A model generated the notes under the pieces. It was given only the letters and a program-made list of their open reading frames with translations, was not told the origin of the DNA and ran no database searches. This document shows positions 1-39,285 of a DNA stretch of 64,000 bases, one piece after another. The position numbers and the translations under genes were made by a program. Each line of letters opens with the position of its first letter. Position 1 is the first letter of the stretch. Source of the DNA: Candidatus Nomurabacteria bacterium (GTDB lineage: Bacteria > Patescibacteriota > Minisyncoccia > Phycocordibacterales > UBA9973). The stretch lies in NCBI GenBank assembly GCA_021413905.1, contig JAIOPO010000005.1, positions 146,957 through 210,956 of the forward strand, read 5' to 3'.

Positions 1-3000
1 TTTGAAGAAGATAATATACTAAAAGGAGTCACGCTTAAAATATTACTTTGGTTGCCAGCTGAATCTGTAACTAACAATGTACAATTTGAATGAACACCAA
101 CGCTTAATGATTCAAAATTTAAAATATTTAAACCTGAAGTAGCGCTCAAAGTAACAGCACGACAATCTCCTGTACCATAACTAATAGATCCGGCTTCGGA
201 CGAAGTAAAGACGTAAGAAGGTGTTGAATTTATAGATGAAGATATAGCAGAATTTTCTGAAATTACTGGTGCTAAAGTATCAATATTAAAATTCAAAGAA
301 TCAGTAGGATCAAGTGGTTCATTTAAAACAGAATCAGTCCAACCAGTACCTACAGTAATTACATTAGAAGAATCTTCAATATCATCATCTGGAGTAAAAA
401 TAGCTGTATATATTTTACTATCTCCTGGGTCAACTACAACAGAAGACAATGTTCCATTTGATACAGAAATATCACCATCATCAAAACCAGAAGGTTCACT
501 TGAAAATGTAAATGTCACATTTGCCACATCTCCTATTTTTAAATCATAATCATTCAAAGAAACAACTAAAGTAGGTCTCACGGTATTATAAGTAACAATA
601 TTGTCTGTTGAAGAGGAAGACATATTCGGATTACCATTAGAATTATGAGCGACATCAGAAGAAATAGATACAATAACAGTTCCGTCGACAGCCATATCAG
701 ACACTGCAATATTGAAATTCATATGATCTCCCGAATCTGTTACGACGACAGTACCAGCATTAGCTGTTCCAGATAATGTGACATCTGTTTCATCGAAATC
801 TAAAACGGTCTGAGAAAATACAGCTGTGAAATTTATAGGAGAAATATCTGTTGGATCTCTTGGGTCAGTTTGCTCAACGGTCACAGTCAAACCAGAAGTA
901 TCAATATCAAAAGTATGACCTGAATCTGAATCCATAACATTACTAGATACATCTTCTGCTCCAGAAATAGTAATTGTTTTAGTTAAAGGACCGATAGAAT
1001 CTGGCACAGTAAAATCATAACAAAATGTTTTTGAATTATGTATCAAATCACAAGCGTACATAGCGGTAGTTGAAACATTACCAACATCAATTCCATTAAT
1101 TTCTATATCTGGAACATTAGAAATATCTTCATTAAAAACAACAAATATAGTATGAGGAGTAGTTGTTAATTTATTAAAAGTTTGACTATCAGAACTAACA
1201 GAAACTATATAAGGTTTTGAATTATCATAAATAAAAGACAAGATGTTAGACTGTGTATTCAAATTATTTGAAGCATCTTCTGCAACACCAGCTGGAACAA
1301 AAACATCTACAGCTCCATCACCAGGGGTAACATCAAAAGTATAAACAGAATCATTAACTGCTTGCAAATTTGAAACAACTCCGTTGGCAACAACAATATC
1401 GTTTAACAAATCATCGAAGCCAGTTACTCCCCCAAGAATAGCACTTGAGAATGTAGCAGTTATGTTAAAAGTACTATCGCTCGTAGGAACAGGCGAAAGC
1501 GAAGATGTGGAAGTTAATATAACAGTAGGATTTACTGAATTGTATGTAATATTAATTGTATTAGAAGTTGTACTATTTAAATTTAATGCTAAATCTTGAG
1601 CTGAATTAGTTTTTATAAAAACAGAAATTGCAGAAGTTGGATTTGATGGAGAAATTTCAAAAGTATAATTTTCATCACTACCAATCAAATTACCAGCCAC
1701 CCCACCTGTTACATCTATATCATTAAGATTAAAACCTGTAACATGTTCACTAAACAAAACACTTACAGAAATCGGAGATATATTAGTTGGATCTGAAAAC
1801 GTTGTATTTATTGAAACTGTAGGCAATGTTGTATCAGTATAAATATCAATAGAACCCACATTATCAGGCAATACATCTACCGAAGAATTACCGGCCAAAT
1901 CAGTACCAGTTATTGTTACATTTTCCGGAACCAAACCTTCAGCTAAAACATCTGAAATTATTGTTCTATTGTAAGTATACACATCACCAGAGAGATGAGT
2001 AGTTGTACCAGAAACAACATCGTTATTTGAACCTTCAGAATCTATAGAAATATAAGGCGCTGAATTAAGTGTTTCATCAGATGTAATTTTAATAATATAA
2101 CTACCTGCTTTTAAATATGAATTATTACTCAAAGGGAAAATCAATCCTGTATCTGATGAATCATAATATTCTATATTAAATTTTGGAAAAGAAGTATCTA
2201 TTGTATAAATTTGTCCTGTGGTAAATGGTAAATTAGAAAGACCACCGCCAGTTAAATCAAAAACAATTGCATTACTATCTGCTTGTAATTGAATAGTTCC
2301 TTCTCCAGAATAACTATCTACAGTAACAGTCCAAGTTGTACCAGAACCACTAACATTTGAAATTTGAGCGCCTGAAACTCCAGTATTATTTAAAACAAAA
2401 TCTGAAATATCGACACCTGTTACCGACTCAGAAAAAGTAACAGTAAAATCAACACTTGAGACATTTGTAGGAGATGTGTTAGCTCTAACAATAGAAGTTA
2501 CATAAGGTAATGATGTATCAAAAGTAACATTTGTTGAAGATACAGTAGCAACAATATTACCAGCAACATCAGTTCCATTAAAATCAAAATCATAAATTGC
2601 ACCATCTACTAAAGACTGAGCGACAGTACAACCATTTCCAGTACCAATACTAAAATGATTATGTGTACCACTATTTAATGCTGTATTTCTAAAAGTACAT
2701 AAATGAGGAGAAGCATTATCTACTGAACCACCTATTCTAGTGATAGCAATAGAACCACTCGCTAAAGATTCACTTAATGTATAAGAAATTGAAGAAGATA
2801 TTGTAACACTACTTATAAATCCATTACTAACTGGATTCACGGAAGAAAAAACAGGAGCGGTATTGTCCAAAGTAAAAGTATCTCCGGAAACAGGTGTTGA
2901 TGTTATCAAATTACCGGCCAAATCAGTACCAGTTGAAAAGGAAACTGTTTCAGTTCCATCACCAGAACCAACACTGTAAACATAATAATAGTGAGTACTA

Positions 3001-6000
3001 TCAACGCGCACCATATTTACAGCCGAAATATTATCAGGACCTGAAAGAACTATTTGCATTGCCGGAGAAGTAGCAATAGGTTTATTAAAAGTAGCTGTAA
3101 TGGTTAAAGAGTCCCCCATTTTAACAATTCTATCTGTGTCAGAATATGTTACAGATGCTGTTGGAGCAACATCATCTGTATTTAATTGCCCAACTAAAAG
3201 ATACGATGTATTACTTGAATGATCTGAAGCGGTAGCACATAAATAATCAGTATGAACTCCTGTTATATAAAAATCACTTCCACTAGTAAATAAATTTCCA
3301 TAAGTATCTGAAACATCACAAATATTATCAGAGCTAAAACCATATTGAACAGTTGCAGTATCTAAATCTGTATCCGAAGCTGTGATATTTATAGTATCAG
3401 AAGAAACCGGACCTGTGTCTGTACCAGAATTAATTGTTAACACTGGAGGTAATGGATCTGAAGGTATATTGTCTACAGTTAAACCACTAGAGTAATTACT
3501 ATTACTATCTACTGTAAATATTTTATAAAAATAATTTACTCCATTAGTTAAACCAGTATCAGTAAAATGATTCAAACTACCTGTATACAAAATATTACTT
3601 GAACCCAAAACTCCTGGAGCAGAATAAGAAGCACCTTCGGTAGGAGCATCAGAAATTGATGATGTTTTTCTTAACACAAGAACATTATTAAAATCAATAT
3701 CAGTTGGATTGGTCCAAGTCAAAGAAATTTGTTGACTCCCTGCTGAAGAATTCAAACTAGAAATATCATCAGTAGAAAGATTGTCGATTGTAATCGTAGC
3801 ACTATTATTACCAAAACCTGAAGGGGTATGACTAGACACAAAAGAACTTACAGTACTAGTTACAACATAATCAGCTCCAGGAATAGCCGGCATATTTAAA
3901 TGAGTTTTTGGCGTAATGCGAATTTTAAAAATGGTCGGAGTTGTAGTTACAGGAATAGGTGTTCCTCCTGAAAAATTTATAACATTAGACAAAGGATCAG
4001 TTGCAACATTAAAATAAGTTGTATTATTGTCATCACTAGTAACCCTGACTTCACTAATGCCGACATACACACCACTTGATAATGTTACAGTTAAAGATGT
4101 AACAGAATCAGTCCCAGTAGTTGTATAAAAAGTAAATTTATCTAAATCAACAACAGAAGAACCTGGTGCAACTGTAACGCTAGATGGATCAGTACTACTA
4201 CCTAATATAGTAGAAACTGAAAATACCCAATTTGGATTATTTCCGCCATCAAAATTAGTACTGTCAGAAGCATCTATATAATTAGTAGAAGAATTGGCAT
4301 TAGATCTGGAAACATTTACATAAGAAACACTTTGACTGCCAGAAACATCTAAATACCAATAAGAAGAATTTGTACTTCTAAAGTAGATTTTTGTTCCAGA
4401 ACCTTGTCCATTCCAATTTACATTATTAAATGTATAAGTTGAACCAGCATTATATTGTACACGCACCGAAGCTGTTGTAATGTTGTAATTATTTGTAGAT
4501 TGTAAATTACTTGAGAAAACAACTGATGGTAAAAAATTTGTTAATTCATTGTCTGTAGCATCAGCTCCTGAACTATTTGTAATTGTTAAATTATAAAAAG
4601 ATGAACTGGAAGCAGAAGTCATATTCCCTGACAATGTTTGTGTTGTATTACCATTCAAATTAACTGTGCCATTTTGTGCATTAAAAATACCATTGTTTAT
4701 ATAATCACCTGAAAGATTTAAAGTATAATTTTGCCCAGAAACAGTGTTCAATGTATTATTTGAATCAATAGTCAAAGTACCTAAAATATTTGTTACTCCA
4801 GATAAAGATTTAATTGGAGTACCAGTATTACGAGACAAACGCAACCCTCCATAAGATGGCAAAGAAGAAATAGTTTGATTTACTCCTGCATTATAAATGA
4901 CAGTTGATAATTTATGTAAGGTTGTATGAATATTTGTGAAATTTGTAGGAAATACAGTAGCAGTTGTATTTGAACCAAGTCTTAAAAAAGCACCAGTACT
5001 CATTATAAATTGTTCTCCACTATTTCCTGTAATTTGAAAACCTCCATCATACAAAGTACCATTCAATATTTTCAAATATCCATTCACAGTAATAGCACCT
5101 GTCATTGTAGCTGTTTGCCCACTATTATCAACAACAAAATGATAATAAGTTGTAGATTTTATATTTTGAGAAACAGAATTACTAGTATATTGAACGATGT
5201 TACCATTAGCTGTCGCTGTTAAAGTTGTGATCGTTGGGACTGTTCCAGTAAATGTCAAAATAGCATCGACTCCTTGAGTGATTGTGCCAATTGTCGGTTG
5301 TGAACCTGAAAAAATAAGCCCATTATTAACACCGGTATCATTATTGGCAATATTTGTAATTGTAAAAGATTGAGAACCTGAAACAGTTTGTTCGTTTGTG
5401 TCAAAAGTATAAAGACCTGTTCCAGCATTAAATGTACCGTTATTCGAAAGACCTCCCCTAAAAGTAAAAGCCGGATTAGCTACATTTGTAGTCCATGTAC
5501 CACCACTGTTAACAGTAACAAGTCCTATAAAAATATTTGTTCCTGTAACAGAATTATCATTAAATGTACCGGAAATAGAAGAAGTACTGTTCACAGTCAA
5601 GGAATTTGTAGCAATTTGCAATAAAGTTCCAGAAGAAATAACGAGATCGTTCAAAGAAATACTTTTTGCATTATTACCAAAAGTTGTAATACCAGAAGAA
5701 ACAGTAAAAGTACCAGTTGAGGTAATATTTGAATTTAAAGTAATTGTAGCAGTACCTAGTGTTGATATATTATTCCATGTTATTTTATTACCACCACCCC
5801 TGTCAGTATCTAGATTAGTAGATGCGCTAATATTTAACGTAGATAAACTAGCATCAACAACACCACCATTTGAATTATTATAAGTTAAAGTTTTAGTAGA
5901 TCCATCAAAATATACGTTTGGGTAAGAAACAGTTCCTATATTTATAGTACCTGTTGGTTTGATAGTTAAATTTTTCTGTAAAATACCAGTACCTGTGTTA

Positions 6001-7478
6001 GACCATGTTCCAGAACCATCCATTATAATATTCGCACTTCCTGTGATATTTCCATTTTGAGAATCTTGTTTTAAACTTCCACCAACAGTAATATCTCTAG
6101 GAGTATCTGTGCTAGGTAAAGTAAAACCTCTTATTATAGATCCTCTTTGTGTACTGTTTATACTTGTAGTTTGAAAAGTCAGATCATGATCTATATCTAA
6201 ATCAGCCAAAATAGACAGAGTGTTAGCATTTAAAATAGTAGTAACATCATACCAACTCATATTTGCAGAAGGTGTATTTAAAGTAGTACCTGAACCAGAC
6301 AAAATTAAATTTGAATTGCTAGTATTGATAGTTCCTGAAGTCCAAGACAAAGTACCTTGACCATAACCAATATCTCCACTTACAGTGATAATGCCACTAG
6401 TATTAAAATTTAAATTGGTTCTAAACAAAGAACCTGTTCCAGACAAAGTACCAGTACCGTCCATAATCAAAGTTTGGCTAGTAGCACCAGTTACAGTAAC
6501 ATCTGAATTAATAGTTAAATCTCCTCCAACATTTATATTGTAAGAACCACTCAAATTAAAAGCGCTCGAATTTGTGTAATTCAACCAAACAAGATTTCCA
6601 GACACAACTAAATTATTAGACAAAGTAAAATTACCACTAACAGTATTTGATATCACAGCATTTGCAACTGTAATATTATTCCAACTAATTCCACTAGTAT
6701 TAAAAGTGACTCCATTTCCAATATCAAGCATCAAAGTAGAACCTGTTGTCGTAACAACAGCACCACTAGTGGCTGAAATTGTTATAGAAGTTGGAGCATC
6801 ATAAACGACTGTTCCGGAAATTGTAGTATTTGCAGAAGAAGAAAAATTTATATTCATTCTAATTCCACAATCTTGTTGAACACTGGTTGAGAAGGTCGGC
6901 AAAGATGCATGTTGCCAAACACCCGTACCAGTAAAAATCAAAGTTCGACCTGTTCCTTTTATTTGAGCAGTACCATTCATTGTAATATTTGAAGTAGTAA
7001 GATCGTTTGTTGAAACAGTAAGAATTCTACCAGAAGAAACATCAATTCCGTAAAAAGTTTTCCCCGCAGAAATCAAAGTAGATGTTCCATTAAAAATCCA
7101 TTTATTTGAATTTGGAGTAAATGTCATTCCTGAAGCGAGAGTAACATTTCCGGTTGTTGTAATAGTAGAATTCAAAGTAAAAGTATTTGTGTAACCGGAA
7201 AAATTTACAACACTAGCAAAAGAAGGTGCATCGACTGTAATTTGACCTGAACCAGAATCTAAATTAACAGTATCACCCACTGTTGGATAAGTACCGGCAT
7301 TCGTAGAACTAGCAGATGAAACCGTTGACCAAGTAGAACTACTAGACCAGTTACCACCCACAGAACGAGCGTAATAAGTTGAAGCCTGAGCGATATTTCC
7401 AGAAAAAATAAAACACAAAAATGCAAAAATAAAAAATGCAAAAAATTTGTAATTTATTTTCCAAAAGCCAAGTCTCAT
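1..7478 (-). CDS. Giant secreted surface protein, partial (more than 2,490 aa; C-terminus lies beyond window start). It has a signal peptide, Thr/Ser/Asn/Gly-rich repeats, bacterial Ig-like domains and at least one fibronectin type III module.
   Basis: ATG at 7476-7478 (minus) gives MRLGFWKINYKFFAFFIFAFLCFIFSGNIAQA, a signal peptide. The frame then stays open all the way to position 1. The ORF track shows no complete minus-strand ORF in 1-7258, which is consistent with one long incomplete frame. An FN3-like motif LTWTNP...NYFYKIF is present, along with repeated 'TFDNTAPV / DTTLPTVS' BIg-like segments. Confidence 0.85.
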   Translation of the reverse strand, partial: MRLGFWKINYKFFAFFIFAFLCFIFSGNIAQASTYYARSVGGNWSSSSTWSTVSSASSTNAGTYPTVGDTVNLDSGSGQITVDAPSFASVVNFSGYTNTFTLNSTITTTGNVTLASGMTFTPNSNKWIFNGTSTLISAGKTFYGIDVSSGRILTVSTNDLTTSNITMNGTAQIKGTGRTLIFTGTGVWQHASLPTFSTSVQQDCGIRMNINFSSSANTTISGTVVYDAPTSITISATSGAVVTTTGSTLMLDIGNGVTFNTSGISWNNITVANAVISNTVSGNFTLSNNLVVSGNLVWLNYTNSSAFNLSGSYNINVGGDLTINSDVTVTGATSQTLIMDGTGTLSGTGSLFRTNLNFNTSGIITVSGDIGYGQGTLSWTSGTINTSNSNLILSGSGTTLNTPSANMSWYDVTTILNANTLSILADLDIDHDLTFQTTSINSTQRGSIIRGFTLPSTDTPRDITVGGSLKQDSQNGNITGSANIIMDGSGTWSNTGTGILQKNLTIKPTGTINIGTVSYPNVYFDGSTKTLTYNNSNGGVVDASLSTLNISASTNLDTDRGGGNKITWNNISTLGTATITLNSNITSTGTFTVSSGITTFGNNAKSISLNDLVISSGTLLQIATNSLTVNSTSSISGTFNDNSVTGTNIFIGLVTVNSGGTWTTNVANPAFTFRGGLSNNGTFNAGTGLYTFDTNEQTVSGSQSFTITNIANNDTGVNNGLIFSGSQPTIGTITQGVDAILTFTGTVPTITTLTATANGNIVQYTSNSVSQNIKSTTYYHFVVDNSGQTATMTGAITVNGYLKILNGTLYDGGFQITGNSGEQFIMSTGAFLRLGSNTTATVFPTNFTNIHTTLHKLSTVIYNAGVNQTISSLPSYGGLRLSRNTGTPIKSLSGVTNILGTLTIDSNNTLNTVSGQNYTLNLSGDYINNGIFNAQNGTVNLNGNTTQTLSGNMTSASSSSFYNLTITNSSGADATDNELTNFLPSVVFSSNLQSTNNYNITTASVRVQYNAGSTYTFNNVNWNGQGSGTKIYFRSTNSSYWYLDVSGSQSVSYVNVSRSNANSSTNYIDASDSTNFDGGNNPNWVFSVSTILGSSTDPSSVTVAPGSSVVDLDKFTFYTTTGTDSVTSLTVTLSSGVYVGISEVRVTSDDNNTTYFNVATDPLSNVINFSGGTPIPVTTTPTIFKIRITPKTHLNMPAIPGADYVVTSTVSSFVSSHTPSGFGNNSATITIDNLSTDDISSLNSSAGSQQISLTWTNPTDIDFNNVLVLRKTSSISDAPTEGASYSAPGVLGSSNILYTGSLNHFTDTGLTNGVNYFYKIFTVDSNSNYSSGLTVDNIPSDPLPPVLTINSGTDTGPVSSDTINITASDTDLDTATVQYGFSSDNICDVSDTYGNLFTSGSDFYITGVHTDYLCATASDHSSNTSYLLVGQLNTDDVAPTASVTYSDTDRIVKMGDSLTITATFNKPIATSPAMQIVLSGPDNISAVNMVRVDSTHYYYVYSVGSGDGTETVSFSTGTDLAGNLITSTPVSGDTFTLDNTAPVFSSVNPVSNGFISSVTISSSISYTLSESLASGSIAITRIGGSVDNASPHLCTFRNTALNSGTHNHFSIGTGNGCTVAQSLVDGAIYDFDFNGTDVAGNIVATVSSTNVTFDTSLPYVTSIVRANTSPTNVSSVDFTVTFSESVTGVDISDFVLNNTGVSGAQISNVSGSGTTWTVTVDSYSGEGTIQLQADSNAIVFDLTGGGLSNLPFTTGQIYTIDTSFPKFNIEYYDSSDTGLIFPLSNNSYLKAGSYIIKITSDETLNSAPYISIDSEGSNNDVVSGTTTHLSGDVYTYNRTIISDVLAEGLVPENVTITGTDLAGNSSVDVLPDNVGSIDIYTDTTLPTVSINTTFSDPTNISPISVSVLFSEHVTGFNLNDIDVTGGVAGNLIGSDENYTFEISPSNPTSAISVFIKTNSAQDLALNLNSTTSNTINITYNSVNPTVILTSTSSLSPVPTSDSTFNITATFSSAILGGVTGFDDLLNDIVVANGVVSNLQAVNDSVYTFDVTPGDGAVDVFVPAGVAEDASNNLNTQSNILSFIYDNSKPYIVSVSSDSQTFNKLTTTPHTIFVVFNEDISNVPDIEINGIDVGNVSTTAMYACDLIHNSKTFCYDFTVPDSIGPLTKTITISGAEDVSSNVMDSDSGHTFDIDTSGLTVTVEQTDPRDPTDISPINFTAVFSQTVLDFDETDVTLSGTANAGTVVVTDSGDHMNFNIAVSDMAVDGTVIVSISSDVAHNSNGNPNMSSSSTDNIVTYNTVRPTLVVSLNDYDLKIGDVANVTFTFSSEPSGFDDGDISVSNGTLSSVVVDPGDSKIYTAIFTPDDDIEDSSNVITVGTGWTDSVLNEPLDPTDSLNFNIDTLAPVISENSAISSSINSTPSYVFTSSEAGSISYGTGDCRAVTLSATSGLNILNFESLSVGVHSNCTLLVTDSAGNQSNILSVTPFSILSSS

Positions 7479-7859
7479 ATACATATAATAATAACATTTA
7501 GATAAAAAAATTGAATAAAAAAATACAAAAATTAATGTGTATAACTAAAAAAGTTTTTTTAAAAGAAAATTAATTGAATTAAAAAAAATTATAAACAAAA
7601 ATCCTGTAAAACAAAAAAAATGGCACACATCTCAAACAAAAGACAGAAAACAAAGGAAAACCACAAACAAACAATAAACCGAAGATTAAACAATACCACC
7701 TAATATTTTCTATTTTTTACCTTGCAGGTCTTCAAAGAATATAAATTAAAAAAATATTAAATAAAAAATCGCAAGGATAATAATTTAAAAACTTATATTT
7801 TAAAAGATTCGCAAGGACTGTCCTTGCGAATATACATGTTATATTGATATAATATAAGA

Positions 7860-11372: not shown

Positions 11373-12779
11373 CTACCTATGATTAATTGAAATTGAACGA
11401 TTCGTATTCTGAATTTCTTTTAACAACCTATCAAGCATATATTTTGTATTGTGTTCAAAATCTTTATCCGTACTTACAGGAATATCAATATTAATTTCTT
11501 TACCTTGGTTCAGATAGTTTACCTTTTTGTTTTTTAAATCAAAAGATACCACTACATCACTTATGCTTTCTTTACTAAGAGACGCATATGCTTTACTTAT
11601 ATTATCTTCCGTAAGAATTTCAGAAAATGCATTTAAATTCTCATCGGATTTCCTTCCTATAAATTTTTCATTCTTGAAAAAAATTGAAAACAGTATATTT
11701 TTATATTTATCACTATGTGATGAGCCGTAAAGTATCTCTATTTCATCTTTTGGAACACTTGGATTTGAAGTAACTTCCCTTACTTGCATAAGTGTCGGAT
11801 GAGAGTACGACATAGTCATTATAAAATCGGTAATGTCTTTCTTTGCAAGATTAATGTTTTCCTTTGTCTCTTCTTTGTTTAAAGTATGATTCTCAACTTT
11901 AGTTAAATCATCGTGTCCCATTAATTGATTTTCTAAAAATTGTTCTTCTAGTTTAATTTTTAATTTCGCAAGAACCTCTTTACTGATGTGCCTATTTTCA
12001 CCAAGTTCATTAACCCAATCAATACTTAAGTCACTGTCAAAAAAGCTATCAAGATATTTGAAGTCTATTTCTTCAATTGGTTTTGTTATCTCTTCTAATA
12101 ACTTATTTTCGGTAGAATTTTTATCCAGATATTCCTTATTTTCAACAAAATTCTGCATTCTATCATCAAGTTGTGTGTCTTCTTTGGATACTTCTTTTTT
12201 ACCAAGAGTAATTGCTTCTCTCCAAAATTTAGATCTCATTTTACCCAAAGTAAGAACATCTATATCTAAATCTATACTTTTCTCAAAATCATAATGATAT
12301 ATAGAGTTACCAGAATTTATTACGCTAGATACATCAACTCCCATGCTCTCCAGTATTGCCATTGCTTTTAAATTATTTAAGGTAACTTGGTAACTCCCAG
12401 TACGATAACTTTCATTTATTGGAACAAGTGATTCCAGATATTTCATATCTTTAAGAAGTCGAAATACGCAATCTTTCAATTCTTGCTTTTTACTTTCATT
12501 AAAATCAGTCGTTTCAATTCTATTTAAATAAATATTTGCTTCGTTATGTATAGTTTCAAGAGCTGAATTTAATTGACCTTCTTTTAAATTTTGCTCAAAA
12601 ATTGAATAGGCAGGATTTAAAAAATTTCGCTGTATAGCATGAGCTTCTTGATACTCCTTCGTTTCTTTTTCTATTTCTAAATTCTCGACTGCTCTCTGAG
12701 GGTTCTCTTTTCGAGTTTTCTTCAAATCTTTCGCAAGATTGTCACGATATTCCGATGAATTAAAATTTGGTTTTTCCAT
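11373..12779 (-). CDS. Hypothetical acidic protein, 468 aa, no recognisable domain.
   Basis: Long ORF with a Lys/Glu-rich low-complexity composition. It is preceded by a copy of the structured leader RNA (12812-12975). Confidence 0.55.
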   Translation of the reverse strand: MEKPNFNSSEYRDNLAKDLKKTRKENPQRAVENLEIEKETKEYQEAHAIQRNFLNPAYSIFEQNLKEGQLNSALETIHNEANIYLNRIETTDFNESKKQELKDCVFRLLKDMKYLESLVPINESYRTGSYQVTLNNLKAMAILESMGVDVSSVINSGNSIYHYDFEKSIDLDIDVLTLGKMRSKFWREAITLGKKEVSKEDTQLDDRMQNFVENKEYLDKNSTENKLLEEITKPIEEIDFKYLDSFFDSDLSIDWVNELGENRHISKEVLAKLKIKLEEQFLENQLMGHDDLTKVENHTLNKEETKENINLAKKDITDFIMTMSYSHPTLMQVREVTSNPSVPKDEIEILYGSSHSDKYKNILFSIFFKNEKFIGRKSDENLNAFSEILTEDNISKAYASLSKESISDVVVSFDLKNKKVNYLNQGKEINIDIPVSTDKDFEHNTKYMLDRLLKEIQNTNRSISINHR

Positions 12780-12811
12780 AAACTTTGTTGGGTTTTATTA
12801 TGGTGCTGGGA

Positions 12812-12975
12812 AGACAAAAAGCTCCTAGCCAGCGATAGTCCGAAGACTACCCGTAACCGTTTCCAGCTACGACCCAACAAAGGTGAACTCTGACTAGGAG
12901 TTCTTTACCTTTGTTGGGATTCATGTGACCATACCATTTTGACTATAAAAAACTACAGATAAAATGGGTTAGGTC
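12812..12975 (-). ncRNA. Copy 4, diverged, of a novel structured leader RNA motif (see findings); it ends in an intrinsic terminator immediately upstream of the 11373-12779 gene.
   Basis: The minus-strand read is GACCUAACCC...GGUAUGGUC...[cccaacaaaggt...AAAGAACUCCUAGUCAGAGUU...acctttgttggg] UCGUAGCUG-GAAA-CGGUUAC [tagtc-UUCG-gacta] ...GCUGGCUAGGAGCuuuuu. It is co-linear with copies at 27789, 39286 and 58546 and shows compensatory stem changes. Confidence 0.55.
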
Positions 12976-13140
12976 TTATTATTAAATTGACTCTTTAAGA
13001 GTAGCATTTTTGACTAAAAAATGCTATCAACTTTTTGTTTTAAATTTCTAGCTCGCCCCGCCAAAAAATCCGAAAGAGAGTCCGCATTTGCATTAGCGGT
13101 CCCCGCACTTTCCATTCTTGGAAAAGCTCTGTGCTTCGCA

Positions 13141-13172
13141 CAGAGGCGCTTCAGCGCGCGGGGAACGCTAGT
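13141..13172 (-). terminator. Intrinsic terminator of the minus-strand operon ending at 13226 (hairpin with GAAG loop plus T-run).
   Basis: The minus-strand read is CCTCTGTGC-gaag-CACAGAGcttttcc, located 55 nt downstream of the pilM-like stop. Confidence 0.5.
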
Positions 13173-13225
13173 GATTACGATTTTGAAAATAGGTTCTGAT
13201 ATGGTTTAATAAACACACCTTAAAT

Positions 13226-13852
13226 TTATTTACTCAATGCCAGACCGACGGCTTTGGCATAACCCAAAGAATCTATAAATGACATCTCGGGTATGTGTCC
13301 ATGTGGTAAATTAAAATTAGTCCAAATATTTGCAAGCTCTACCTTTTGACGAATACCGACAGATAAATATTCTGCAATATTAGGAACCTTCGCCCCATCT
13401 CCGCATAAAATTATTTTTTTAATTTTCGGTCTTTCTGTATTATCAGCATATTTATTTGTATGCCAATAAATAAATTGCCTCTGAACTTCATCTCTAAATT
13501 TAGAAAGCCATTCTATTCCTTGTACTATTTCAGATTCCCCAATATCTAAAGTAATACTCGATACAGATTTACCATTTACAACAAAATGCATATAGGTACG
13601 AACCTTATTAATTTCTATTATTAAATAATTTTCATCATCTACTTTATTTATTAAAACATTAGCCAAGACTTGACCTTCTTGATTTATTGAAACAGGATAA
13701 TTTCCTTTTTTCTTTATATTTTCCGGAAGCACTCCGCATCCGAAACGACCAATTTTTATTGATTTTCCATTTTTTAAAACTTCAACAAATTTAACAAGTT
13801 CACCTGAATCATCAATACCAAAAAAAGATTTAGAAAAAATATTCTTTAACAT
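13226..13852 (-). CDS. PilM-like actin-fold pilus assembly protein, short form of 208 aa.
   Basis: The N-terminus FGIDDSGELVKFVEVLKNGKSIKIGRFGCGVLPE and the C-terminus IILCGDGAKVPNIAEYLS...ANIW resemble the ends of PilM. The middle domains appear to be missing. Confidence 0.4.
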   Translation of the reverse strand: MLKNIFSKSFFGIDDSGELVKFVEVLKNGKSIKIGRFGCGVLPENIKKKGNYPVSINQEGQVLANVLINKVDDENYLIIEINKVRTYMHFVVNGKSVSSITLDIGESEIVQGIEWLSKFRDEVQRQFIYWHTNKYADNTERPKIKKIILCGDGAKVPNIAEYLSVGIRQKVELANIWTNFNLPHGHIPEMSFIDSLGYAKAVGLALSK

Positions 13853-15703: not shown

Positions 15704-15964
15704 ATGTACTACTTTTATGTATTAAGATTTCATAAAAATAAAAAACTATATTATGGTTTTACAAATGATTTAAAGCGCAGAATAAAAGAACATAGAGCTG
15801 GAAATTCTGATTTTAGTTCTAAAAATGGAATATTTGACTTAATCTTCTATGAAGCTTATATTAGTAAAGAGGATGCTAGAGAAGCAGAAAAATATTTCAA
15901 AACAGGACATGGAAGAGAGGTTTTGAAAAATAAATTGAAAAATTATTTTGGAGGCGTCGCATAG
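15704..15964 (+). CDS. GIY-YIG nuclease superfamily protein (YhbQ/URI-like, about 86 aa); its 3' end overlaps the 5' end of tRNA-Ser.
   Basis: MYYFYVLRF...KLYYGFTNDLKRRIKEHRAG is a GIY-YIG core. The ATG at 15704 is preferred over the upstream TTG at 15656. The stop codon TAG lies inside GGAGGCGTCGCATAG, which is the start of the tRNA. Confidence 0.75.
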   Translation: MYYFYVLRFHKNKKLYYGFTNDLKRRIKEHRAGNSDFSSKNGIFDLIFYEAYISKEDAREAEKYFKTGHGREVLKNKLKNYFGGVA

Positions 15965-16036
15965 TGGTTTAGTGCACCTGTCTTGAAAACAGGAGTACCG
16001 CAAGGTACCGTGAGTTCGAATCTCACCGCCTCCGCC
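15950..16036 (+). tRNA. tRNA-Ser (anticodon TGA) with a long variable arm.
   Basis: GGAGGCGTCGCATAGTGGTTTAGTGCACCTGTCTTGAAAACAGGAGTACCGCAAGGTACCGTGAGTTCGAATCTCACCGCCTCCGCC; the anticodon loop is CTTGAAA. Confidence 0.85.
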
Positions 16037-16112
16037 TTGACAACCTGTTAGTTTCGTGTCCCGACTGCCTGAGGTGGCAGTGCGACCCGAGTGCTACCAT
16101 GGTTGTAACAAA

Positions 16113-16146
16113 AACGGAGCATAATGTGCTCCGTTTTTGTTTTTTC
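16113..16146 (+). terminator. Intrinsic terminator downstream of tRNA-Ser.
   Basis: aACGGAGCAtaatgTGCTCCGTtttttgttttttc. Confidence 0.65.
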
Positions 16147-16199
16147 TTCTATAATTTCTCCGAAAAAATTGAATTTGGTACGTATGCTAGAATTAGCAT

Positions 16200-19100
16200 G
16201 TGGATCAATATATACAGCCCATCACAAAGGTATTCACCTCTTTTGAAGAGGCTAAGAACGATGTCGACCAAAATGGTCACTCGTCTCTTTTCATTGATGA
16301 CCGCAAGATACTCAGCCTTACTGACCTCGCCCAAGGAAACCGTAATTTAATCGTTGGCGAGCCGGGCGTTGGAAAGACCGAGCTTCTGAAGAAATTTAAG
16401 GCGCACCATGACACCCTTGGCGACAAGACATGCTTGGTTAATCTTCGCATCGGAAGTCCGATTGAACAGATTGATTCCTTTTTAAAAGAAACGACAACAG
16501 CAAAAAAGGTTCTCATTCTCGACGCACTCGACGAGGTTCGCTCGTCTATTTTCCCGAATGTGCTTCAAAAAATAGAGACTGTATCAAAAGAGAATCCTGA
16601 TCTGATCATTTATCTGTCTTCTCGCTGGATATTCGTAAGCAAATACGCCAACAGCTTTCCGGACTTTCGATTCATCAGAATTCTGCCGTTCTCGACATGG
16701 CAGGTGAAAAAATATCTCATGCATGCCGGACACACTGAGGCTGATGTCGATGCGCTCCTTGCGCGGATCATGCATTTCAATCACGGAAAGCTTTTGGTTC
16801 AAATTCCTCGGTATCTATTTTTCCTAGTTGCCTTTATAAAAGACAAGACCATCGCAAACGTTTCTCAGATATCGAGAAACGAGCTGTTTGAATACTTCAT
16901 TTACTCCAAGCTCGACATTGAGGACAAAAATCTTAACACCGACACGAAGGCGGTCATCAAGCGCATACTGGAAAAACTCGCACTGACAATGGAAATATAT
17001 CAGGCGAACACCATTACGAAAGATGAGCTTATGACATTCTTCGACGATATCGAGTCAGATCTCAAACTGACCGTGCTTTCACATATTACGCTTGAAGTCT
17101 TTTATGCGAAGACTATTCTTCAGGAAAGTACACAGGATCTCAACAGTGTTGAATTTGAAAACGCCGAATTCCAAGAATATCTCGCGGCAAAGGAAATTAC
17201 ACGCTTCTCCGAACCGCACCGTGTCGCTTTCGACTTCGCCGTCGAGGAAAATATCGATGAGATACTTCCGTCATGGTTCAATACGCTCACGTTTCTCGTC
17301 GATATGATTCCCGACATACTCGAACAGCTCTTGGAATTCTCAGGTCTGAGAAGCGGAACATTCAAGATTGCCGATGAAGGATTTTTAAATTTTCTCGGCA
17401 GAGTGAATCCAACAAGCATCTCGTCTGAATTTCGAAGCCGTATATTCATGGACGTAATCAACTATCACGAAAAGACCTTGCAATGGATTCCGGGGCAACT
17501 GACCCATTCGCTTCCGGGCTTCTTCAGTATTGCTCTTGAGGCAGATCTCAAGCGTCTTGCGGAAAGTGCAGAAAAAGAAACTGGCACAAATTATTTCGTG
17601 AAGCTCGGGAATATTGCGTATACGGTTGCGTACTTGTTTGATGCAAAAGTCGCACTCGACAAACCGTACTGGCGCGAAAAACTAATCTCCTACACAAAAG
17701 ACAAAAATGAAAACGGTGTATTGCAACGCCATGCGCTTTTGGCTCTCGAAAAGCTTGGCGACCCAACCGTCATCGACGAGCTACCGAATCTATTACTCGG
17801 GAATGACGAGCTGGTCGCGCGCGAATTTGTATCTGCCTGCATCGCGCTCGATCCAGACCACCCGAAGAGTGTTATCTATGCGATGCAATTGATAAAAGAT
17901 GGTGAGCTGTCCGGTCGGTATGGACTGTTTGAAATGAAAAAGAAATCATCCATCGTTGCCTTTTTCAAGGAATACATAAAAGATGACAAGTTCAGAAAGG
18001 AATTCCTCGATGATGTCCCTATCCTAGGTGAGCAGGATGTCGCGCTCGTCAAAAACATTGAAGCGATTCTCGATGATGAAATTGCGGAACTGTGTAAGGA
18101 GGTTATTGCAAAATCAATCGAAAGCTACCTCCACCAGTCAATCGACCAGTCTGCGTTCGTGAACGGATTGTTTCAATTGCTCAAGAAAAGGGACTCGGGA
18201 TTCATATCAGAAATAGTCAGACGTTTACACAAGGACGATGAGAAAAAACATACCCTGTACTTCGCCCAAGAAACATTTGCGCGAATACTTGGAAAAGACG
18301 ACATCGTTCCATTCCTCGGTGTCATGATTGAGCTTGGTCAACAGAAGATGGCGATGGATACGATGGTTAGAATTAAATATTCCAAGCGCGATGCCTGCGA
18401 AGAAATGTTCGAGTTTGGAAGAAGCAAGTTGCCGACGGAATATGCTGAGTGGGAGGCGGCTATTCAGCGGGGCACACCTCCGGCGGATACTTCACGGACG
18501 GATAAAATGCTCAAGGAATTCAGATTGTACCTACAACCCAAAAAGGGAGAATTTACGATGGGTGTTTTTCATCATTATATCCACGCCGCTGACACACTCG
18601 ATCCGCTCCTAACGAAAAAGGATAAAGACCGACTGATCGAATTGATTACCGGCAGTGTCTTGAACCAAAATCCGACAGCGCATGGCTTCACTATTCAATC
18701 AGAACATCCAGATGGCGGCACTCAACGATACACTACGAGCCAAGTCGTCCAGATGTTTGGTGATGCTCTCCGCGCCGCTCAGCGACTTGGTGTCGATATC
18801 ACTCCGTACCGAAAAAATATCGCGCTCTATATTCCATTCGCATACAGCGAAGAACTTAAAACTATTTTCGAGCTGATTAAAGACTTCAAGCCGGACGAGC
18901 TTGATCCGGTCATTGCGATATATCAGGAGAAAAAAGATGACCTCTGGCGACACCAACCAGAAAGCTTTGCGAATCTCGCACAACAGTATCATCTAGTTGC
19001 GGCAGTTCCCGTACTCCGCGATTTTGTGAAAGAGTCTCGCTTCCGTATCTACAATAGATGCGAGATGTTGAGGATTATTGATTCTCTTGCACCCGATGCC

Positions 19101-20649: not shown

Positions 20650-21993
20650 TTATTTTTCTTCGTTTTCTTTTAGTAAAGTAATTTTCTTGTTGTTCAGTAC
20701 CAATCTCGTCCGCAGGTGACCCATCAGCTCGCGCTTCTCAAGCGGCGTACCCTCGCGGAGGACGTACTTCGCGTACTCTCTTGTATTCACATCGTCCTCG
20801 TTGATTGAATACTTCGGTGTACCTTTGGTCGCCAGTCGTTGTAGCCGGTTGAATCGTTTGATTTCTTCCTCCAGTTTCATTCGCATTCCCAGTTCATTGA
20901 TGCTCACTTGATCAATTACCTTGAACAGTTCCTCGATCAATTCTTCCTCGCGGATGTATTTGTTCTTGCAGTTGCGATCTCTTGCCTTCGAGCAGGAGTA
21001 GTAGACATACTTGGCCGTCGTCGTGTCTTTTAGCTCCTTGTACTTCTCCTGCGCCGTGATACCCGAGCCACATAGTCCGCAGGTAAACAATTTCGTGAAT
21101 GCGAATTCTCGATTTTCTCGCACAATCTTGTCTCGTTTCAGTTGCTCTTGTGCTTTCTCGTACAGTTCTTTCGTTATGATCGGCTCATGCTTCCCGTCGT
21201 ACCAATTGCCGGAGTCTCGGGGATACTCGAATGGTCCGTAGTAAATCGGCATGTTGAATATTCGGTACACTCCGCTCAGTGTCAGCGGCCGATTTCCTCT
21301 GGTGTGGAAATTCAGATCGAATCTGAGCCAGTTGTACACCTTTCGTCCGCTCCACCCCTCGTATGCCACTTTCTCGAACATTTTCCGGACGATCGGGGCG
21401 CGGTCGGGGTCGATTGCGATCTGGCATTTCCGGTCGAGCAGTTTCTGGTTCAGATACCCAAGCGGTGCCATGCCCGGCCAGAGTCCCATCTCAACCCTCG
21501 TTCGCAGTCCGCGCTTCACGTTAATGCCTCGGTTGTCGTTTTCGAGCTTCGCTTGCGAGCCGAGAATCATGAGCAGGAATTTCTCGTTCGGGTTGTTTCC
21601 GAACGTCTGCCCGAAGGTGCGTATCTGGTGCAATTTTCCCGCGTCCATGAGGTCGACAATTTTCCCGAGGTCACCCGCGTTTCTACTAATTCGATCCGGT
21701 GCCCATGTCAGGATGCCGTTGAACTTTCCGGCTCGCAGTTCGTCGATGATCTCGTTGAACACTGGCCGCTGACCCGTCTCTTTCGCGCTGTGACTCTCAC
21801 GCTTCATGGTCACAATCTCCAACCCCTCGCGCTCGGCCAGTTGGAGCATCTCCTTGATCTGGCTGTCGATGCTGAGCACCTGCCTCTCTTCCGACTCTGT
21901 CGATTTTCTCGCGTAGAGGCAGTATTTCATCTTGATCGGGATGACTACTTTGGCCGTCGTCCCTAATGGCGCTTGCGTTTGTGTATGGTTCAT
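20650..21993 (-). CDS. Large serine recombinase, integrase type, copy R1.
   Basis: YARKSTESEERQVLSIDSQ is the resolvase catalytic-Ser region. A recombinase domain follows, then the CGLCGSG...CSKARDRNC zinc ribbon and a C-terminal coiled-coil. The probable start is the M of MNHTQ... at about 21993, although the ORF is open to 22080. It is paralogous to 37815-39134 and 53409-54737. Confidence 0.85.
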   Translation of the reverse strand: MNHTQTQAPLGTTAKVVIPIKMKYCLYARKSTESEERQVLSIDSQIKEMLQLAEREGLEIVTMKRESHSAKETGQRPVFNEIIDELRAGKFNGILTWAPDRISRNAGDLGKIVDLMDAGKLHQIRTFGQTFGNNPNEKFLLMILGSQAKLENDNRGINVKRGLRTRVEMGLWPGMAPLGYLNQKLLDRKCQIAIDPDRAPIVRKMFEKVAYEGWSGRKVYNWLRFDLNFHTRGNRPLTLSGVYRIFNMPIYYGPFEYPRDSGNWYDGKHEPIITKELYEKAQEQLKRDKIVRENREFAFTKLFTCGLCGSGITAQEKYKELKDTTTAKYVYYSCSKARDRNCKNKYIREEELIEELFKVIDQVSINELGMRMKLEEEIKRFNRLQRLATKGTPKYSINEDDVNTREYAKYVLREGTPLEKRELMGHLRTRLVLNNKKITLLKENEEK

Positions 21994-22049
21994 ACATCTA
22001 CAGGAATGACGCAATACCGCTATGGAGTCCAGAGCGTCCCGAGTGGTAG

Positions 22050-22060
22050 GTGTTGGTAAC
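22050..22060. promoter_or_regulatory. Recombinase-associated conserved core GTGTTGGTAAC; putative attachment-site core at the R1 site.
   Basis: The same 11-mer recurs at 27696, 39189, 54793 and as GCTGTTGGTAAC at 58454. The left arm ...GATGACGCAA..AGAGCGTCCC is shared with the R3 site. Confidence 0.45.
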
Positions 22061-22083
22061 TTTTTTCTTGATATACTCACTAT

Positions 22084-27788: not shown

Positions 27789-27943
27789 GACCTAACCCCG
27801 AAAGGCCTTGTGGCTTCTCGGATATGGTCAAAAAACCGCTACAGTATAAAAGACTCCTCGTCAGAGTCACTGTAGCGGTCGTATCCGGAAACGGGTATGG
27901 GTTTAGCCGAAAGGCTGAATCGCGATGGCGAGGAGTCTTTTAT
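27789..27943 (+). ncRNA. Structured leader RNA copy 1 of the novel motif: promoter-proximal, covarying helices, GAAA tetraloop hairpins and a terminal intrinsic terminator.
   Basis: GACCUAACCCC[ccga..ucgg]GGAUAUGGUC AAAAAA [ccgctacagt AUAAAAGACUCCUCGUCAGAGUC actgtagcgg] UCGUAUCCG-GAAA-CGGGUAUGG [agcc-GAAA-ggct] ..GGCGAGGAGUCuuuu. The 3' segment CGAGGAGUC is complementary to GACUCCUCG in the apical loop. Confidence 0.6.
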
Positions 27944-27988
27944 CAACGAGACTCTTGGTTCATTCGTAAAACAAAACCGCTACAGTGT

Positions 27989-28459
27989 ATGAATGACCTC
28001 AACAAGTTTTTTGCCACCACAAGTGGCAAGTGTGCGTTCGCAATCATTTTTTTAATAATCGGTTTCTTCGGCGGTATGCAGTACAAGGCATACCAGATCA
28101 AGAGCGTCATCACTGATTCGCTCATGCCTGCGATTACGAGCAGTTTGGATGACGCGAGAACGAAAGCGAGCGACGCGAAAATCCGTGCAATCGTTTCGTC
28201 CGCTCGGGCACAAGGCGAACTGTATTACTCGTCTGGCGGCAACGATACAACCTACAAGGGAGTTTGTTCTGATTCTGAATTTACGCATTTGATTGATGGC
28301 GCGAATAGCACGCCGACCTGTAACGAAGCCAGAGACGGTTCCGCATGGGCAGTCGCCATTCCAATGAGCGACTCATCAACCTATGCTTGTTCTGATTCCA
28401 CTGGCGCATCCATCGTCATTAATTATCCGCTCGGTTCCGCTAGTTCTTGCACGAAGTAG
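27989..28459 (+). CDS. Pilin-like or pseudopilin-like small secreted protein with an atypical N-terminus.
   Basis: Hydrophobic N-terminal helix AFAIIFLIIGFFGG, then ...SSARAQGELYYSSGGN, which resembles the N-terminal helix of Gram-positive/CPR type IV pilins. The C-terminal Cys pairs fit, but the canonical G-FTLIE prepilin site is missing. The in-frame upstream extension from 27824 overlaps the RNA and was rejected. Confidence 0.4.
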   Translation: MNDLNKFFATTSGKCAFAIIFLIIGFFGGMQYKAYQIKSVITDSLMPAITSSLDDARTKASDAKIRAIVSSARAQGELYYSSGGNDTTYKGVCSDSEFTHLIDGANSTPTCNEARDGSAWAVAIPMSDSSTYACSDSTGASIVINYPLGSASSCTK

Positions 28460-37390: not shown

Positions 37391-37822
37391 ATGAATAAGA
37401 AAAACGTATACAAAGATAAGGACGGACGGGATATATTTCAAGTTAATACGATTTTTAATGTGCGTATTGAAAAAACATATTTACATCCCGAATATGATTT
37501 AACTGCTGACACAAATGAAATGACTGACACGGGACTTATGATTGTCTTCAAGCTTGAATCAAAAAACACCACTCTTCCATCATTTGTAGGACGATGGGAT
37601 CATAAACAAGGAGTACTCGATATAGATATATTCAAAGTTAGTAGAAAGATTGTAACCGACTTTCGTGCTGGTAAAAACAACTATGGTGGACATCACCCTT
37701 TACTAATTTCAGAAAGTCCTCGTTTGTTTGCAATAGATATAAATATACCTAAGGGGAAAATAATAGAAGGCGCAATGACTTTTAATATTGGTCACGGACA
37801 TGCTCCTATATTATTTAACTAG
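37391..37822 (+). CDS. Hypothetical protein of 143 aa.
   Basis: ORF only. Confidence 0.35.
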   Translation: MNKKNVYKDKDGRDIFQVNTIFNVRIEKTYLHPEYDLTADTNEMTDTGLMIVFKLESKNTTLPSFVGRWDHKQGVLDIDIFKVSRKIVTDFRAGKNNYGGHHPLLISESPRLFAIDINIPKGKIIEGAMTFNIGHGHAPILFN

Positions 37823-39134
37823 TAAGACTAAGCTTCTTATTCGCCAAACATATCTTACTCTTCAAGCAACCCAACAACTCTCTTTTTTCAATATCAGATC
37901 CTTCTTTTAAAATAAATTTTGCGTATCCTTGTATATCTACATTTGAAACATTAATTTTTTCTTTGGTTCCTAGTAGGAATCTTTGAAATTTAGTAAATCT
38001 TTCGATATCGTTTTTTATCTTTTCTTTGACTTCAAACTCATTGATCGAAATGTCTTCGAGCAGTAATTCAAATTGTTTGATTAACTCTTTCTCTTCAGTA
38101 TAGCCACATTTACAATGTTCGCCTTTGGCTTTAGTACATCCGTAATAAACATAACGATGCACATTTCCATTTTGTTGCTTTTTAAACTTTTCGTCAGCTG
38201 TAATTCCTGATCCGCAAAGCCCACAAGTCATCATTTTTGTAAAAGCGAATTCTTTGTTTTCAACTCTTAACACATTACTTTTTATTTGCTCTTGAACTAA
38301 ATCAAACAATTCTTTTGTAATTAACGGTTCATGTTTTCCTGTATACCAATTACCTGATTTTTTTGGATATTCAAAAACTCCGTAATAGAAAGGATTATCC
38401 AGTATCTTGTAGAGATTACCTAAACTTAAATGTTTTTTACCTACAGCTGTTCTGAAATTTAAATCAAATCTTAGCCAATTGTATATTTTTCTCCCACTAC
38501 ATTTTTCATATGCAACTTTTTCAAACATCTTTTTAATAGTTGACGCTCTTTCAGGATCAATTAACACCTCGCATTTTCTATCTGTCATTTTTTGATTTAA
38601 ATAACCAGTAGGAGCTACTCCAGGTCTTAGCCCCATTTCGGCTCTCGTTCGTAATCCTCTTTTTACATTTACACTTTTATTATCGTTTTCTAGTTTTGCT
38701 TGCGAACACAAAATCATTAAAAGAAATTTTTCATTTGGTGAATTCTTAAAATGTTGCCCATAAGTTCTAATTTCTAAAAGAAATTGCTGATCCATTAAAT
38801 CTACAATACTTCCTAAGTCACCAGCATTTCTACTTAATCTGTCGGGTGCCCAAGTTAGAATTCCATTAAACCTACCATGTCGCACATCTTCTAATATTTC
38901 TTTATATACAGGTCTTTGTCCTGACTCTTTGGCTGAATGTGATTCTCTTCTGATTTCAACAACATCGAGACCTTCTTTTTCAGCTAAACTAAGCATTTCT
39001 TTAACTTGCGAATCAATAGATAAAACTTGACGTTCTTCTGATTCAGTCGATTTTCTAGCATACAGTACGTATTTAATTTTTTGTATTGGTGCAAGAATTT
39101 CTTTTCCAATACGTGCTGACATATATGTTTCCAT
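37815..39134 (-). CDS. Large serine recombinase, integrase type, copy R2.
   Basis: IKYVLYARKSTESEERQVLSIDSQ, the CGLCGSG...C zinc ribbon, and roughly 65-70 percent identity by eye to R1 and R3. Confidence 0.85.
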   Translation of the reverse strand: METYMSARIGKEILAPIQKIKYVLYARKSTESEERQVLSIDSQVKEMLSLAEKEGLDVVEIRRESHSAKESGQRPVYKEILEDVRHGRFNGILTWAPDRLSRNAGDLGSIVDLMDQQFLLEIRTYGQHFKNSPNEKFLLMILCSQAKLENDNKSVNVKRGLRTRAEMGLRPGVAPTGYLNQKMTDRKCEVLIDPERASTIKKMFEKVAYEKCSGRKIYNWLRFDLNFRTAVGKKHLSLGNLYKILDNPFYYGVFEYPKKSGNWYTGKHEPLITKELFDLVQEQIKSNVLRVENKEFAFTKMMTCGLCGSGITADEKFKKQQNGNVHRYVYYGCTKAKGEHCKCGYTEEKELIKQFELLLEDISINEFEVKEKIKNDIERFTKFQRFLLGTKEKINVSNVDIQGYAKFILKEGSDIEKRELLGCLKSKICLANKKLSLTS

Positions 39135-39188: not shown

Positions 39189-39199
39189 GTGTTGGTAAC
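39189..39199. promoter_or_regulatory. GTGTTGGTAAC core 55 nt upstream of R2, flanked on the right by the arm TTCGCTTAACAAAAATA and leader RNA copy 2.
   Basis: ggcaacGTGTTGGTAACttcgcttaacaaaaatag. Confidence 0.45.
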
Positions 39200-39285
39200 T
39201 TCGCTTAACAAAAATAGTTATATGCGATAGGATTGATGGATTAATACAGACATATGCTGTATTATGTATATATAATTTAATAACC

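Follow-up and report, generated by a model that had tools for sequence, protein, structure and literature searches.

In the 64,000-nucleotide stretch of DNA that we analyzed (the window), the minus strand at 12834-12975 carries what is almost certainly a true LOOT RNA, located directly upstream of an ORF of 468 amino acids. The motif is already known (Rfam RF03000; PMC5737381; PMC7657543) and this copy is a new member of it. What is new is a long-range helix within the RNA (helix H), a three-way matched pairing that involves the start site of the downstream gene, and the island context of the family, all of which are absent from the Rfam model and from the literature that we found. Whether this LOOT copy acts in cis as a conformational switch, being the structured 5' leader of the 468-aa ORF, is in our judgment evenly poised, although no other reading is better supported.

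The identification is carried by the covariance model. With cmscan the minus-strand copy scores 76.7 bits against the Rfam gathering score of 46.4, has an E-value of 1e-12 for the window, and covers all of the 121 model positions, from 12975 down to 12834. A gathering-threshold Rfam scan of the whole window matched only LOOT and tRNAs and found exactly four LOOT copies, among which the minus-strand copy has the second-highest score (Table 1). The minus strand of 12800-12985 folds at -72.3 kcal/mol (z = -8.3), and 0 of 200 shuffles fold as well. In RNAalifold the four window copies share 47 pairs, of which 16 show a compensatory change, and in the cmscan alignments the P2, P3 (GAAA loop) and P4 (UUCG loop) of the minus-strand copy are unlike those of the other three in sequence, with the pairing kept. 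The hallmarks of the family are present as well: the CCUAA/AUGG internal loop of P1, which reads GACCUAACC...GGUAUGGUC here and lies in columns that are invariant in 57 sequences, and a long P2, the GAAA-looped P3 and a P4 hairpin at the end, each kept by compensatory changes. The original prediction had described a diverged fourth copy of a single structured RNA in which P2, P3 and P4 were all changed yet compensatory, and the full-length model match with its intact helices bears this description out. It had also considered and then dropped the idea of an RNase P RNA. This was the right decision, as an E-value scan of 12500-13400 returned, besides LOOT, only one chance microRNA match and no RNase P match at E <= 1, and on this basis RNase P, a tRNA-like element or another known RNA were rejected.

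The LOOT motif comes from a survey of 224 motifs published in 2017 (PMC5737381). In the main text of that survey LOOT occurs only as the name of an author. A 2020 paper (PMC7657543) mentions only an unusual cross-covariation of LOOT, and our literature search found no functional study of the motif. To collect relatives we used one strict sequence pattern that singles out the four copies (chance matches expected in the window: 0), and this single pattern biases the sample towards close relatives. It matched 60 loci among 185,579 species genomes, of which about 55 are true LOOTs, nearly all of them in Patescibacteria MAGs.

Table 1. Positions of the parts of the minus-strand LOOT copy, of the four LOOT matches and core junctions in the window, and of the recurrent gene families near LOOT loci
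Feature	Position	Strand	Remarks
LOOT RNA as in RF03000 (P1, P2, P3, P4)	12834..12975	-	cmscan 76.7 bits, model positions 1-121; fold z = -8.3
P1	12927..12975	-	outer stem GACC/GGUC; internal loop CCUAAC...UAUGG; outer stem and loop bases invariant in 57 sequences
X, basal P2 5' strand (CCCAACAAAGG)	12908..12918	-	pairs with X' in cmscan alignment and MFE fold
Helix H 5' strand (GGUAAAGAACUCCUAGUCA)	12891..12909	-	covers the A-rich internal loop of P2, its apical 5' strand and its loop; partner 12831-12813
X', basal P2 3' strand (CCUUUGUUGGG)	12873..12883	-	complement of both X and X2 at start codon
P3 hairpin	12852..12871	-	GAAA loop in invariant context GGAAAC; 100% paired in 57 sequences, 3 pairs changed on both sides
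P4 hairpin	12834..12851	-	UUCG loop; cmscan alignment and MFE fold
Helix H 3' strand, tail UGGCUAGGAG + CUUUUUGUC ("U-tract")	12813..12831	-	outside Rfam model; chosen by RNAalifold on four copies
P5, alternative local hairpin (GCUGG...CCAGC) sharing part of tail	12805..12833	-	in MFE folds
X2, exact second copy of P2 5' strand (CCCAACAAAG)	12783..12792	-	3 nt before ATG
468-aa ORF downstream	11373..12779	-	ORFan, no Pfam domain, NCBI tag K8Q94_03140
Retained upstream module	12998..13026	-	inverted repeat TAGCATTTTT/AAAAATGCTA and extended -10-like TGcTACTCT
LOOT match	58547-58668	+	82.1 bits, model positions 1-121
LOOT match	39286-39411	+	75.8 bits, model positions 1-121
LOOT match	27789-27921	+	75.2 bits, model positions 1-121
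Junction recombinase / core / LOOT	39189		as would be expected for an attP-like site
Junction recombinase / core / other	22050, 54792		as would be expected for attR-like sites
Junction other / core / LOOT	27696, 58454		as would be expected for attL-like sites
Large serine recombinase	19 loci		upstream, divergent
Terminase-large-like protein	12 loci		downstream, opposite strand, after one to three variable ORFs
Small HTH / terminase-small-like protein	24 loci		downstream, opposite strand, after one to three variable ORFs
ParB_N + DNA methylase	25 loci		downstream, opposite strand, after one to three variable ORFs

Helix H is formed when the 3' tail and the "U-tract" pair with the A-rich internal loop and the apex of P2, and it has no counterpart in the 121-position Rfam model. 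The lower bound of 12812 that was first proposed for the element fits this well, as the conserved tail GCUGGCUAGGAGCUUUUUGUC extends past the model to near 12813. In a MAFFT alignment of 57 instances plus 72 nt, the 19 positions of helix H are 92.8% paired and 14 of the pairs are changed on both sides; 0 of 500 shuffles did as well, and controls in which the strands were slid are 48-55% paired. The 10-bp core, which joins the P2 apical 5' strand and loop to the tail after P4, is about 100% paired, and in the 11-position PK helix (the ten core pairs and a weak 77/171 position) 8 positions are changed on both sides. Examples of matched strands are AUAGAAAA with UUUUCUGU, AUAUAGAA with CUUUAUG, and AAUAAGAGACUCC with GGAGUCUCUUAUU. 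The minus-strand copy has 18 of the 19 positions paired. G.U pairs are abundant (UG:46, UG:53, GU:23), which makes the structure specific to the LOOT strand and thus argues for an RNA rather than a DNA element. The view that the motif is a genuine RNA and not merely part of an att region therefore stands in its first half, since the pairing is strand specific and rich in G.U; the second half fares less well, because across the family LOOT is mostly borne on islands (38 of 59 loci).

Part of helix H competes with the stem that Rfam draws at the apex of P2. Three apical bases of the helix H 5' strand, CUC, can instead pair locally, and the apex base (column 79), its local partner and its tail partner covary three ways, with 33 sequences showing (C,G,G) and 23 showing (U,A,A). 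This three-way covariation indicates that the apical P2 stem and helix H compete for one strand. Here the basal P2 pairs were taken from the Rfam alignment, as the MAFFT alignment is out of register there, and the choice of the P2 apex between its two partners was judged by column-wise counts, as duplex-energy windows are too generous to discriminate. RNAalifold on the four window copies prefers helix H over P2. Between a full helix H (18-19 bp) and a full basal P2 (11 bp) there is no linker, and for steric reasons the two would not be able to coexist. A plain intrinsic terminator at the U-run was considered and rejected: the terminator scan finds no local GC-rich hairpin with a U-run at the tail, and the U's, which follow the long-range helix, are themselves paired within helix H, with covariation, to the A-rich P2 loop. 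The local P5 hairpin was likewise dropped as a feature of the family (median -11.3 kcal/mol against -9.0 in controls). In the minus-strand copy P1 has a long copy-specific inner hairpin (12967-12934), and among the relatives the P4 loop is GAAA or another small variable loop. As a separate observation, the P1 internal loop CCUAAC...UAUGG (12968-12973 / 12929-12933) and the P3 GAAA loop (12860-12863) on the minus strand may form a tertiary contact, judging from their sequences.

The second set of pairings links the RNA to the start of the gene. The 468-aa ORF is on the same strand as the minus-strand motif, and 55 nt separate the end of the motif from its ATG (12779), which agrees with the leader position that had been proposed for it. 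Within this leader CCCAACAAAG occurs as X at 12918-12909 and again as X2 at 12792-12783, with its complement X' at 12882-12873, and it is found nowhere else in the window. The other three window copies are matched in the same manner through X, X' and X2, each with its own sequence, so the X sequence is different in each of the four. About 60% of the loci have an exact 8-16-nt copy of the P2 5' strand 60-92 nt past the P3 loop; this site ends -1 to +5 nt from an ATG, and the ORF opened there is 88-468 aa long. A same-strand ORF of at least 60 aa follows LOOT in 58 of 59 related loci, and in the loci with X2 the ATG is usually 34-64 nt beyond the tail. Pairing of X' with the ATG-adjacent site comes to -15 to -17 kcal/mol in RNAduplex. 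When the start region is defined from the ORF alone, 57% of 58 loci show a pairing of X' with it at dG <= -14 kcal/mol, compared to 2.2% of 2502 cross-locus pairs, and there are twenty distinct X' sequences, each of which matches its own start region. One X (CCCGCTAGAG) stands before unrelated proteins in eleven loci, which argues that X2 is a part of the RNA module rather than of the gene. Approximately one third of the LOOT loci have no X2, some of them with a strong hairpin after the tail, and thus the start-site pairing cannot be the only function of the family.

The pairings at the start site are mutually exclusive for X, X' and X2, as they are for the apical stem and helix H. It counts against a switch of the kind proposed below that X' is enclosed in an 11-bp helix and that P2 is retained, with X2 unpaired, when the whole leader is folded to its MFE; in the minus-strand copy only, this fold also pairs J1/2 (CAUGAAU) with GUUUAUG across the start codon. 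X2 was considered as a replacement for a Shine-Dalgarno sequence and rejected as nothing special in this respect, as SD-like motifs are rare throughout the window (before only 3 of 49 ORFs). Many ORFs of the window have TATAAT 6-8 nt before the ATG, a picture that suggests widespread leaderless translation, and a separate promoter just before X2 is conceivable. Two smaller observations concern the other copies. For the ORF after the copy at 27789 the most likely start is the ATG at 27989, which directly follows the X2 site (both within 27976-27991) and gives 156 aa; the start that was assigned mechanically, at 27824, is inside the LOOT RNA of that copy. The P2 5' strand of the copy at 58547 (CCTATCAAGC) occurs once antisense in the 468-aa ORF, at 11427-11436 (+), probably by chance (about 0.1 expected).

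In the cis-acting switch that we favor, the leader RNA would be about 165 nt long, reaching beyond the Rfam model, and would hold two sets of competing pairings. In the first of these the P2 apex would either fold locally or build helix H, for which it and the A-rich loop pair with the tail and U-run. In the second X' would pair either with X or with the identical X2, which ends 3 nt before the start codon. With P2 formed the start region would be free, and formation of helix H would open P2, release X' and allow the start region to be covered. Transcription could also terminate behind the RNA, at the U's next to the GC-rich part of H. The alignments show the pairings with their covariation; which of the two states is ON, what signal controls the switch and where the transcript begins and ends are inferences. 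As the downstream genes are unrelated, a condition of the host or of the island, or else a protein or RNA factor, is a more likely signal than a metabolite linked to the gene. The unrelated functions downstream, unlike those of classical riboswitch regulons, also count against a cis switch, as do the failure to find a consensus promoter or simple terminator around this copy and the absence of LOOT upstream of the nearest homologue of the 468-aa ORF (see below). The high diversity of X and the four differing copies in one genome would be explained more easily by a specificity determinant that acts in trans than by pure cis control. A more specific proposal, which is possible although we lean somewhat against it, is that LOOT is a "programmable" riboregulator of the integrative islands of ultra-small (CPR) bacteria, in which a conserved folded core holds a variable 10-14-nt helix strand that would always match the start of the cargo gene and be released according to the competing long-range helix with the U-run, the strand possibly being an address that would guard against cross-regulation between co-resident islands.

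The strongest competitor of the cis-acting leader, one that we regard as unlikely but worth weighing, is a discrete sRNA that ends at the U-run and acts antisense on X2 both in cis and in trans, as a specificity or immunity determinant like the c4 RNA of phages P1/P7. The start-site data are what it would expect: in this copy the X2 site to which X' is complementary stops 3 nt short of the ATG, most loci show such a match between X' and the start region in many sequence versions, and no two of the four copies in the genome have X in common, as would be needed if co-resident elements avoid cross-talk. LOOT is mostly on integrative, phage-related islands with repressor genes, Rfam gives the type of LOOT as sRNA gene, and an RNA of roughly 165 nt could be terminated by the U's behind the GC-rich core of helix H. 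However, X' is within an 11-bp stem and not in an exposed loop, the U-run is paired in helix H and the terminator scan reports nothing there, and one MAG has two LOOT copies that share the same X (L013 and L061). C4 regulates Ant, as an antisense regulator (PMC8201110, citing Citron & Schuster 1990), whereas the genes that LOOT would regulate are unrelated cargo with no conserved antirepressor. The Rfam scan of the window, in which LOOT and tRNAs were the only matches, likewise gave no sign of homology to C4.

The setting of the family bears on the remaining alternatives. When the ORFs within 5 kb of 59 LOOT instances were clustered, four recurrent families emerged (Table 1); at least one of these is present at 38 of the 59 loci and none at 21, the minus-strand copy included. 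LOOT thus usually sits at the att-proximal end of islands that are integrated by large serine recombinases, where it is followed by diverse cargo. In the window the sequence GTGTTGGTAAC, with one mismatch allowed, occurs only at 22050, 27696, 39189, 54792 and 58454. Each of the three recombinase genes (20650-22080, 37815-39134 and 53409-54737 (-)) has a core about 55 nt to its right, and the three plus-strand LOOT copies are 85-95 nt from a core. The three types of junction found at these cores fit tandem islands that integrated at the core, each of which starts with core, LOOT and cargo and ends with a recombinase. The cargo of island B (39189-54792), at 44119-53404, includes a LexA/CI-like repressor, a Pycsar cyclase with a PycTM effector, a second cyclase-like gene, DUF2726, a SIR2-like gene, a cupredoxin, DsbD_2+HMA, a CopA-type copper ATPase and a CsoR repressor. 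No capsid or tail genes are recognisable in island B, and searches of IMG/VR gave no match to the LOOT pattern and none to the terminase-like protein, so we label these elements integrative, phage-related islands and not prophages.

The proteins encoded downstream of LOOT do not form a functionally coherent set. They include DUF4352, bPH, DUF4145, PG_binding_1 and trypsin-like (Trypsin_2) proteins, a methyltransferase, many small membrane or secreted proteins and many ORFans, and are mutually unrelated. This is a difficulty for a classical small-molecule riboswitch, in which LOOT would be the aptamer for a metabolite or signalling nucleotide and would act through variable platforms (X2 pairing or termination). 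Such a riboswitch would account for the compact conserved fold with its invariant GAAA loop, receptor-like internal loop and long-range helix, for the 5' UTR position, and for alternative pairings that resemble an anti-start / anti-anti-start platform and vary between loci. The downstream genes, though, share no pathway, their common denominator is a position on mobile islands, and no ligand can be inferred. We consider this reading improbable, and it ranks, with the relic and DNA-level readings below, as less likely than both the cis leader and the c4-like sRNA.

The minus-strand copy itself was described from the start as lying outside the recombinase context, and this is confirmed. No GTGTTGGTAAC core is found near it within one mismatch, as had been stated, the only matches lying at the positions given above, and there are no recombinase, terminase or island genes nearby. 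Its neighbors are host-like, with PilM-like and VTT-domain genes upstream and, on the downstream side, tRNAs and genes for an NYN protein and a pseudouridine synthase. A database protein identical to the 468-aa ORF, annotated as hypothetical, comes from a Candidatus Nomurabacteria MAG. The 468-aa protein has three database matches, one of which is itself, and the only usable homologue is in L062 (P0002, 78% identity), where a GC-rich upstream element is shared and LOOT is absent from the 179 nt available upstream. The suggestion that orthologous genes in related genomes might carry the motif thus found no support in the only clear non-identical homologue. This speaks against an ancestral link between LOOT and the 468-aa gene, and LOOT was accordingly gained or lost recently at this gene. 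The window uses the standard genetic code. Its first 16 kb have 31% GC, the part between 16 and 36 kb about 47%, and the remainder 33-39%. The jump from 31% to about 47% (15950-16200) comes right after a tRNA-Ser (15950-16036) and is followed by a 1360-aa ORF with no PHROG match; it may mark the boundary of a further island. At the left end of the window an ORF of more than 2514 aa (1-7544, minus strand) runs off the edge.

Upstream of LOOT the first 100 nt are conserved across genomes, as seen in an alignment of the upstream regions of 59 loci. The order is (G/C)TGTTGGTAAC, then CTACACAA or CTTCGCAA, then CTAAGCTAGG, the inverted repeat, an extended -10 (TGnTAnnnT), TTTACAAnTTAATAGGAGA and GACCUAACC, and the GTGTTGGTAAC core is part of this widespread conserved module. 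The minus-strand copy keeps the inverted repeat (13026-13017 and 13011-13002), the TGcTACTCT (13006-12998, overlapping the repeat) and the CAATTTAATA box. Further upstream, before GAGCTAGAAAT, it has a GC-rich element in place of the core, and the CTACACAA box is missing. From its sequence the extended -10-like TGcTACTCT may be the LOOT promoter; a simple sigma-70 scan around this copy gave no consensus promoter, and no simple hairpin terminator was found. The inverted repeat that lies just before the extended -10 and overlaps it in L002-L061 and the window copies varies between loci and stays self-complementary, as would be the case for an operator of element-specific repressors or a transcribed hairpin. 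The GC-rich element (13060-13175, minus strand) has a closing stem and three hairpins with 3-4-nt loops (UGAA, GAA, AGAA) in a cloverleaf-like arrangement, followed by GGAUUUUUUGG; it has no Rfam match, its fold has z = -2.8, and it is partly conserved upstream of the LOOT-less L062 homologue.

With the promoter-proximal module kept and the core missing, this copy has the look of a single or relic arm of an island, or else of a module that was transplanted. It could be a decaying remnant of integration or excision that has no role for the 468-aa gene. The truncated upstream module without core and CTACACAA box, the weak -10 element, the lack of island genes nearby and the L062 homologue without LOOT all fit such a remnant. 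The state of the RNA does not: every helix is intact despite heavy divergence, the score is the second highest of the four, helix H keeps 18 of 19 positions paired, and X, X' and X2 match exactly over 10 nt, three segments that a decaying relic would not keep matched. A decaying relic seems to us a poor prospect. A DNA-level signal, either part of the recombinase attachment site or a hairpin in single-stranded DNA, is very hard to credit, since for all that three copies lie close to the GTGTTGGTAAC core that marks the junctions of recombinase and LOOT arms, the minus-strand copy has no core, 21 of 59 loci have none of the four island gene families within 5 kb, and the many G.U pairs would be A.C mismatches on the other strand.

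The fourth LOOT copy alone is an ordinary finding. LOOT is one of many orphan structured RNAs, and helix H, the start-site pairing and the competing helices give it an anatomy that can be tested. Its setting is a variable "cargo slot" beside the attachment site of recombinase-driven Patescibacteria islands that carry defence and surface genes. Should the switch model be right, it would join the few cases in which gene regulation is understood in the mostly uncultivated CPR bacteria, and it would offer a compact RNA part with a freely changeable target-matching strand. If the programmable riboregulator were true, it would be an RNA-based specificity or immunity system without a homologue among the characterised ones.

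Comparison with known systems helps to place these features. The minus-strand copy agrees with LOOT RF03000 in its P1-P4 architecture, the CCUAA...AUGG loop and the P3 GAAA loop. The Rfam model ends at P4, whereas this copy and its relatives run about 20-25 nt further and form helix H with the interior of P2, and the model has no start-site copy of the P2 5' strand, which is present after most relatives. The P1 loop and the invariant P3 GAAA loop resemble the GAAA tetraloop / 11-nt receptor of group I introns and RNase P. The canonical receptor is CCUAAG...UAUGG and the LOOT loop is CCUAAC...UAUGG, so that one position differs (C for G), with CAUGG in some relatives, and a contact of this kind is a prediction from the sequences. 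Among mobile elements, c4 of P1/P7 (immI operon) and the CI RNA of P4 are small RNAs that lie upstream of their target in the same orientation and are complementary to its ribosome-binding region, and the complementary sequences differ between related elements. LOOT is like them in being a small RNA of mobile elements that lies upstream in the same orientation and holds the complement of the next gene's start region. It differs from them in having no sequence or structural homology, in that its antisense segment is base-paired, and in that its targets are diverse cargo and not an antirepressor. Translational riboswitch platforms of the anti-SD / anti-anti-SD type sequester a Shine-Dalgarno sequence and regulate related genes, while in LOOT the sequestered segment is not a Shine-Dalgarno, varies freely between loci and precedes unrelated genes. 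What the minus-strand LOOT copy would share with these platforms is the use of three matched segments (one strand of a helix within the folded domain, the partner of that strand, and the place beside the start codon where ribosomes load), in which formation of the structured domain frees the start region.
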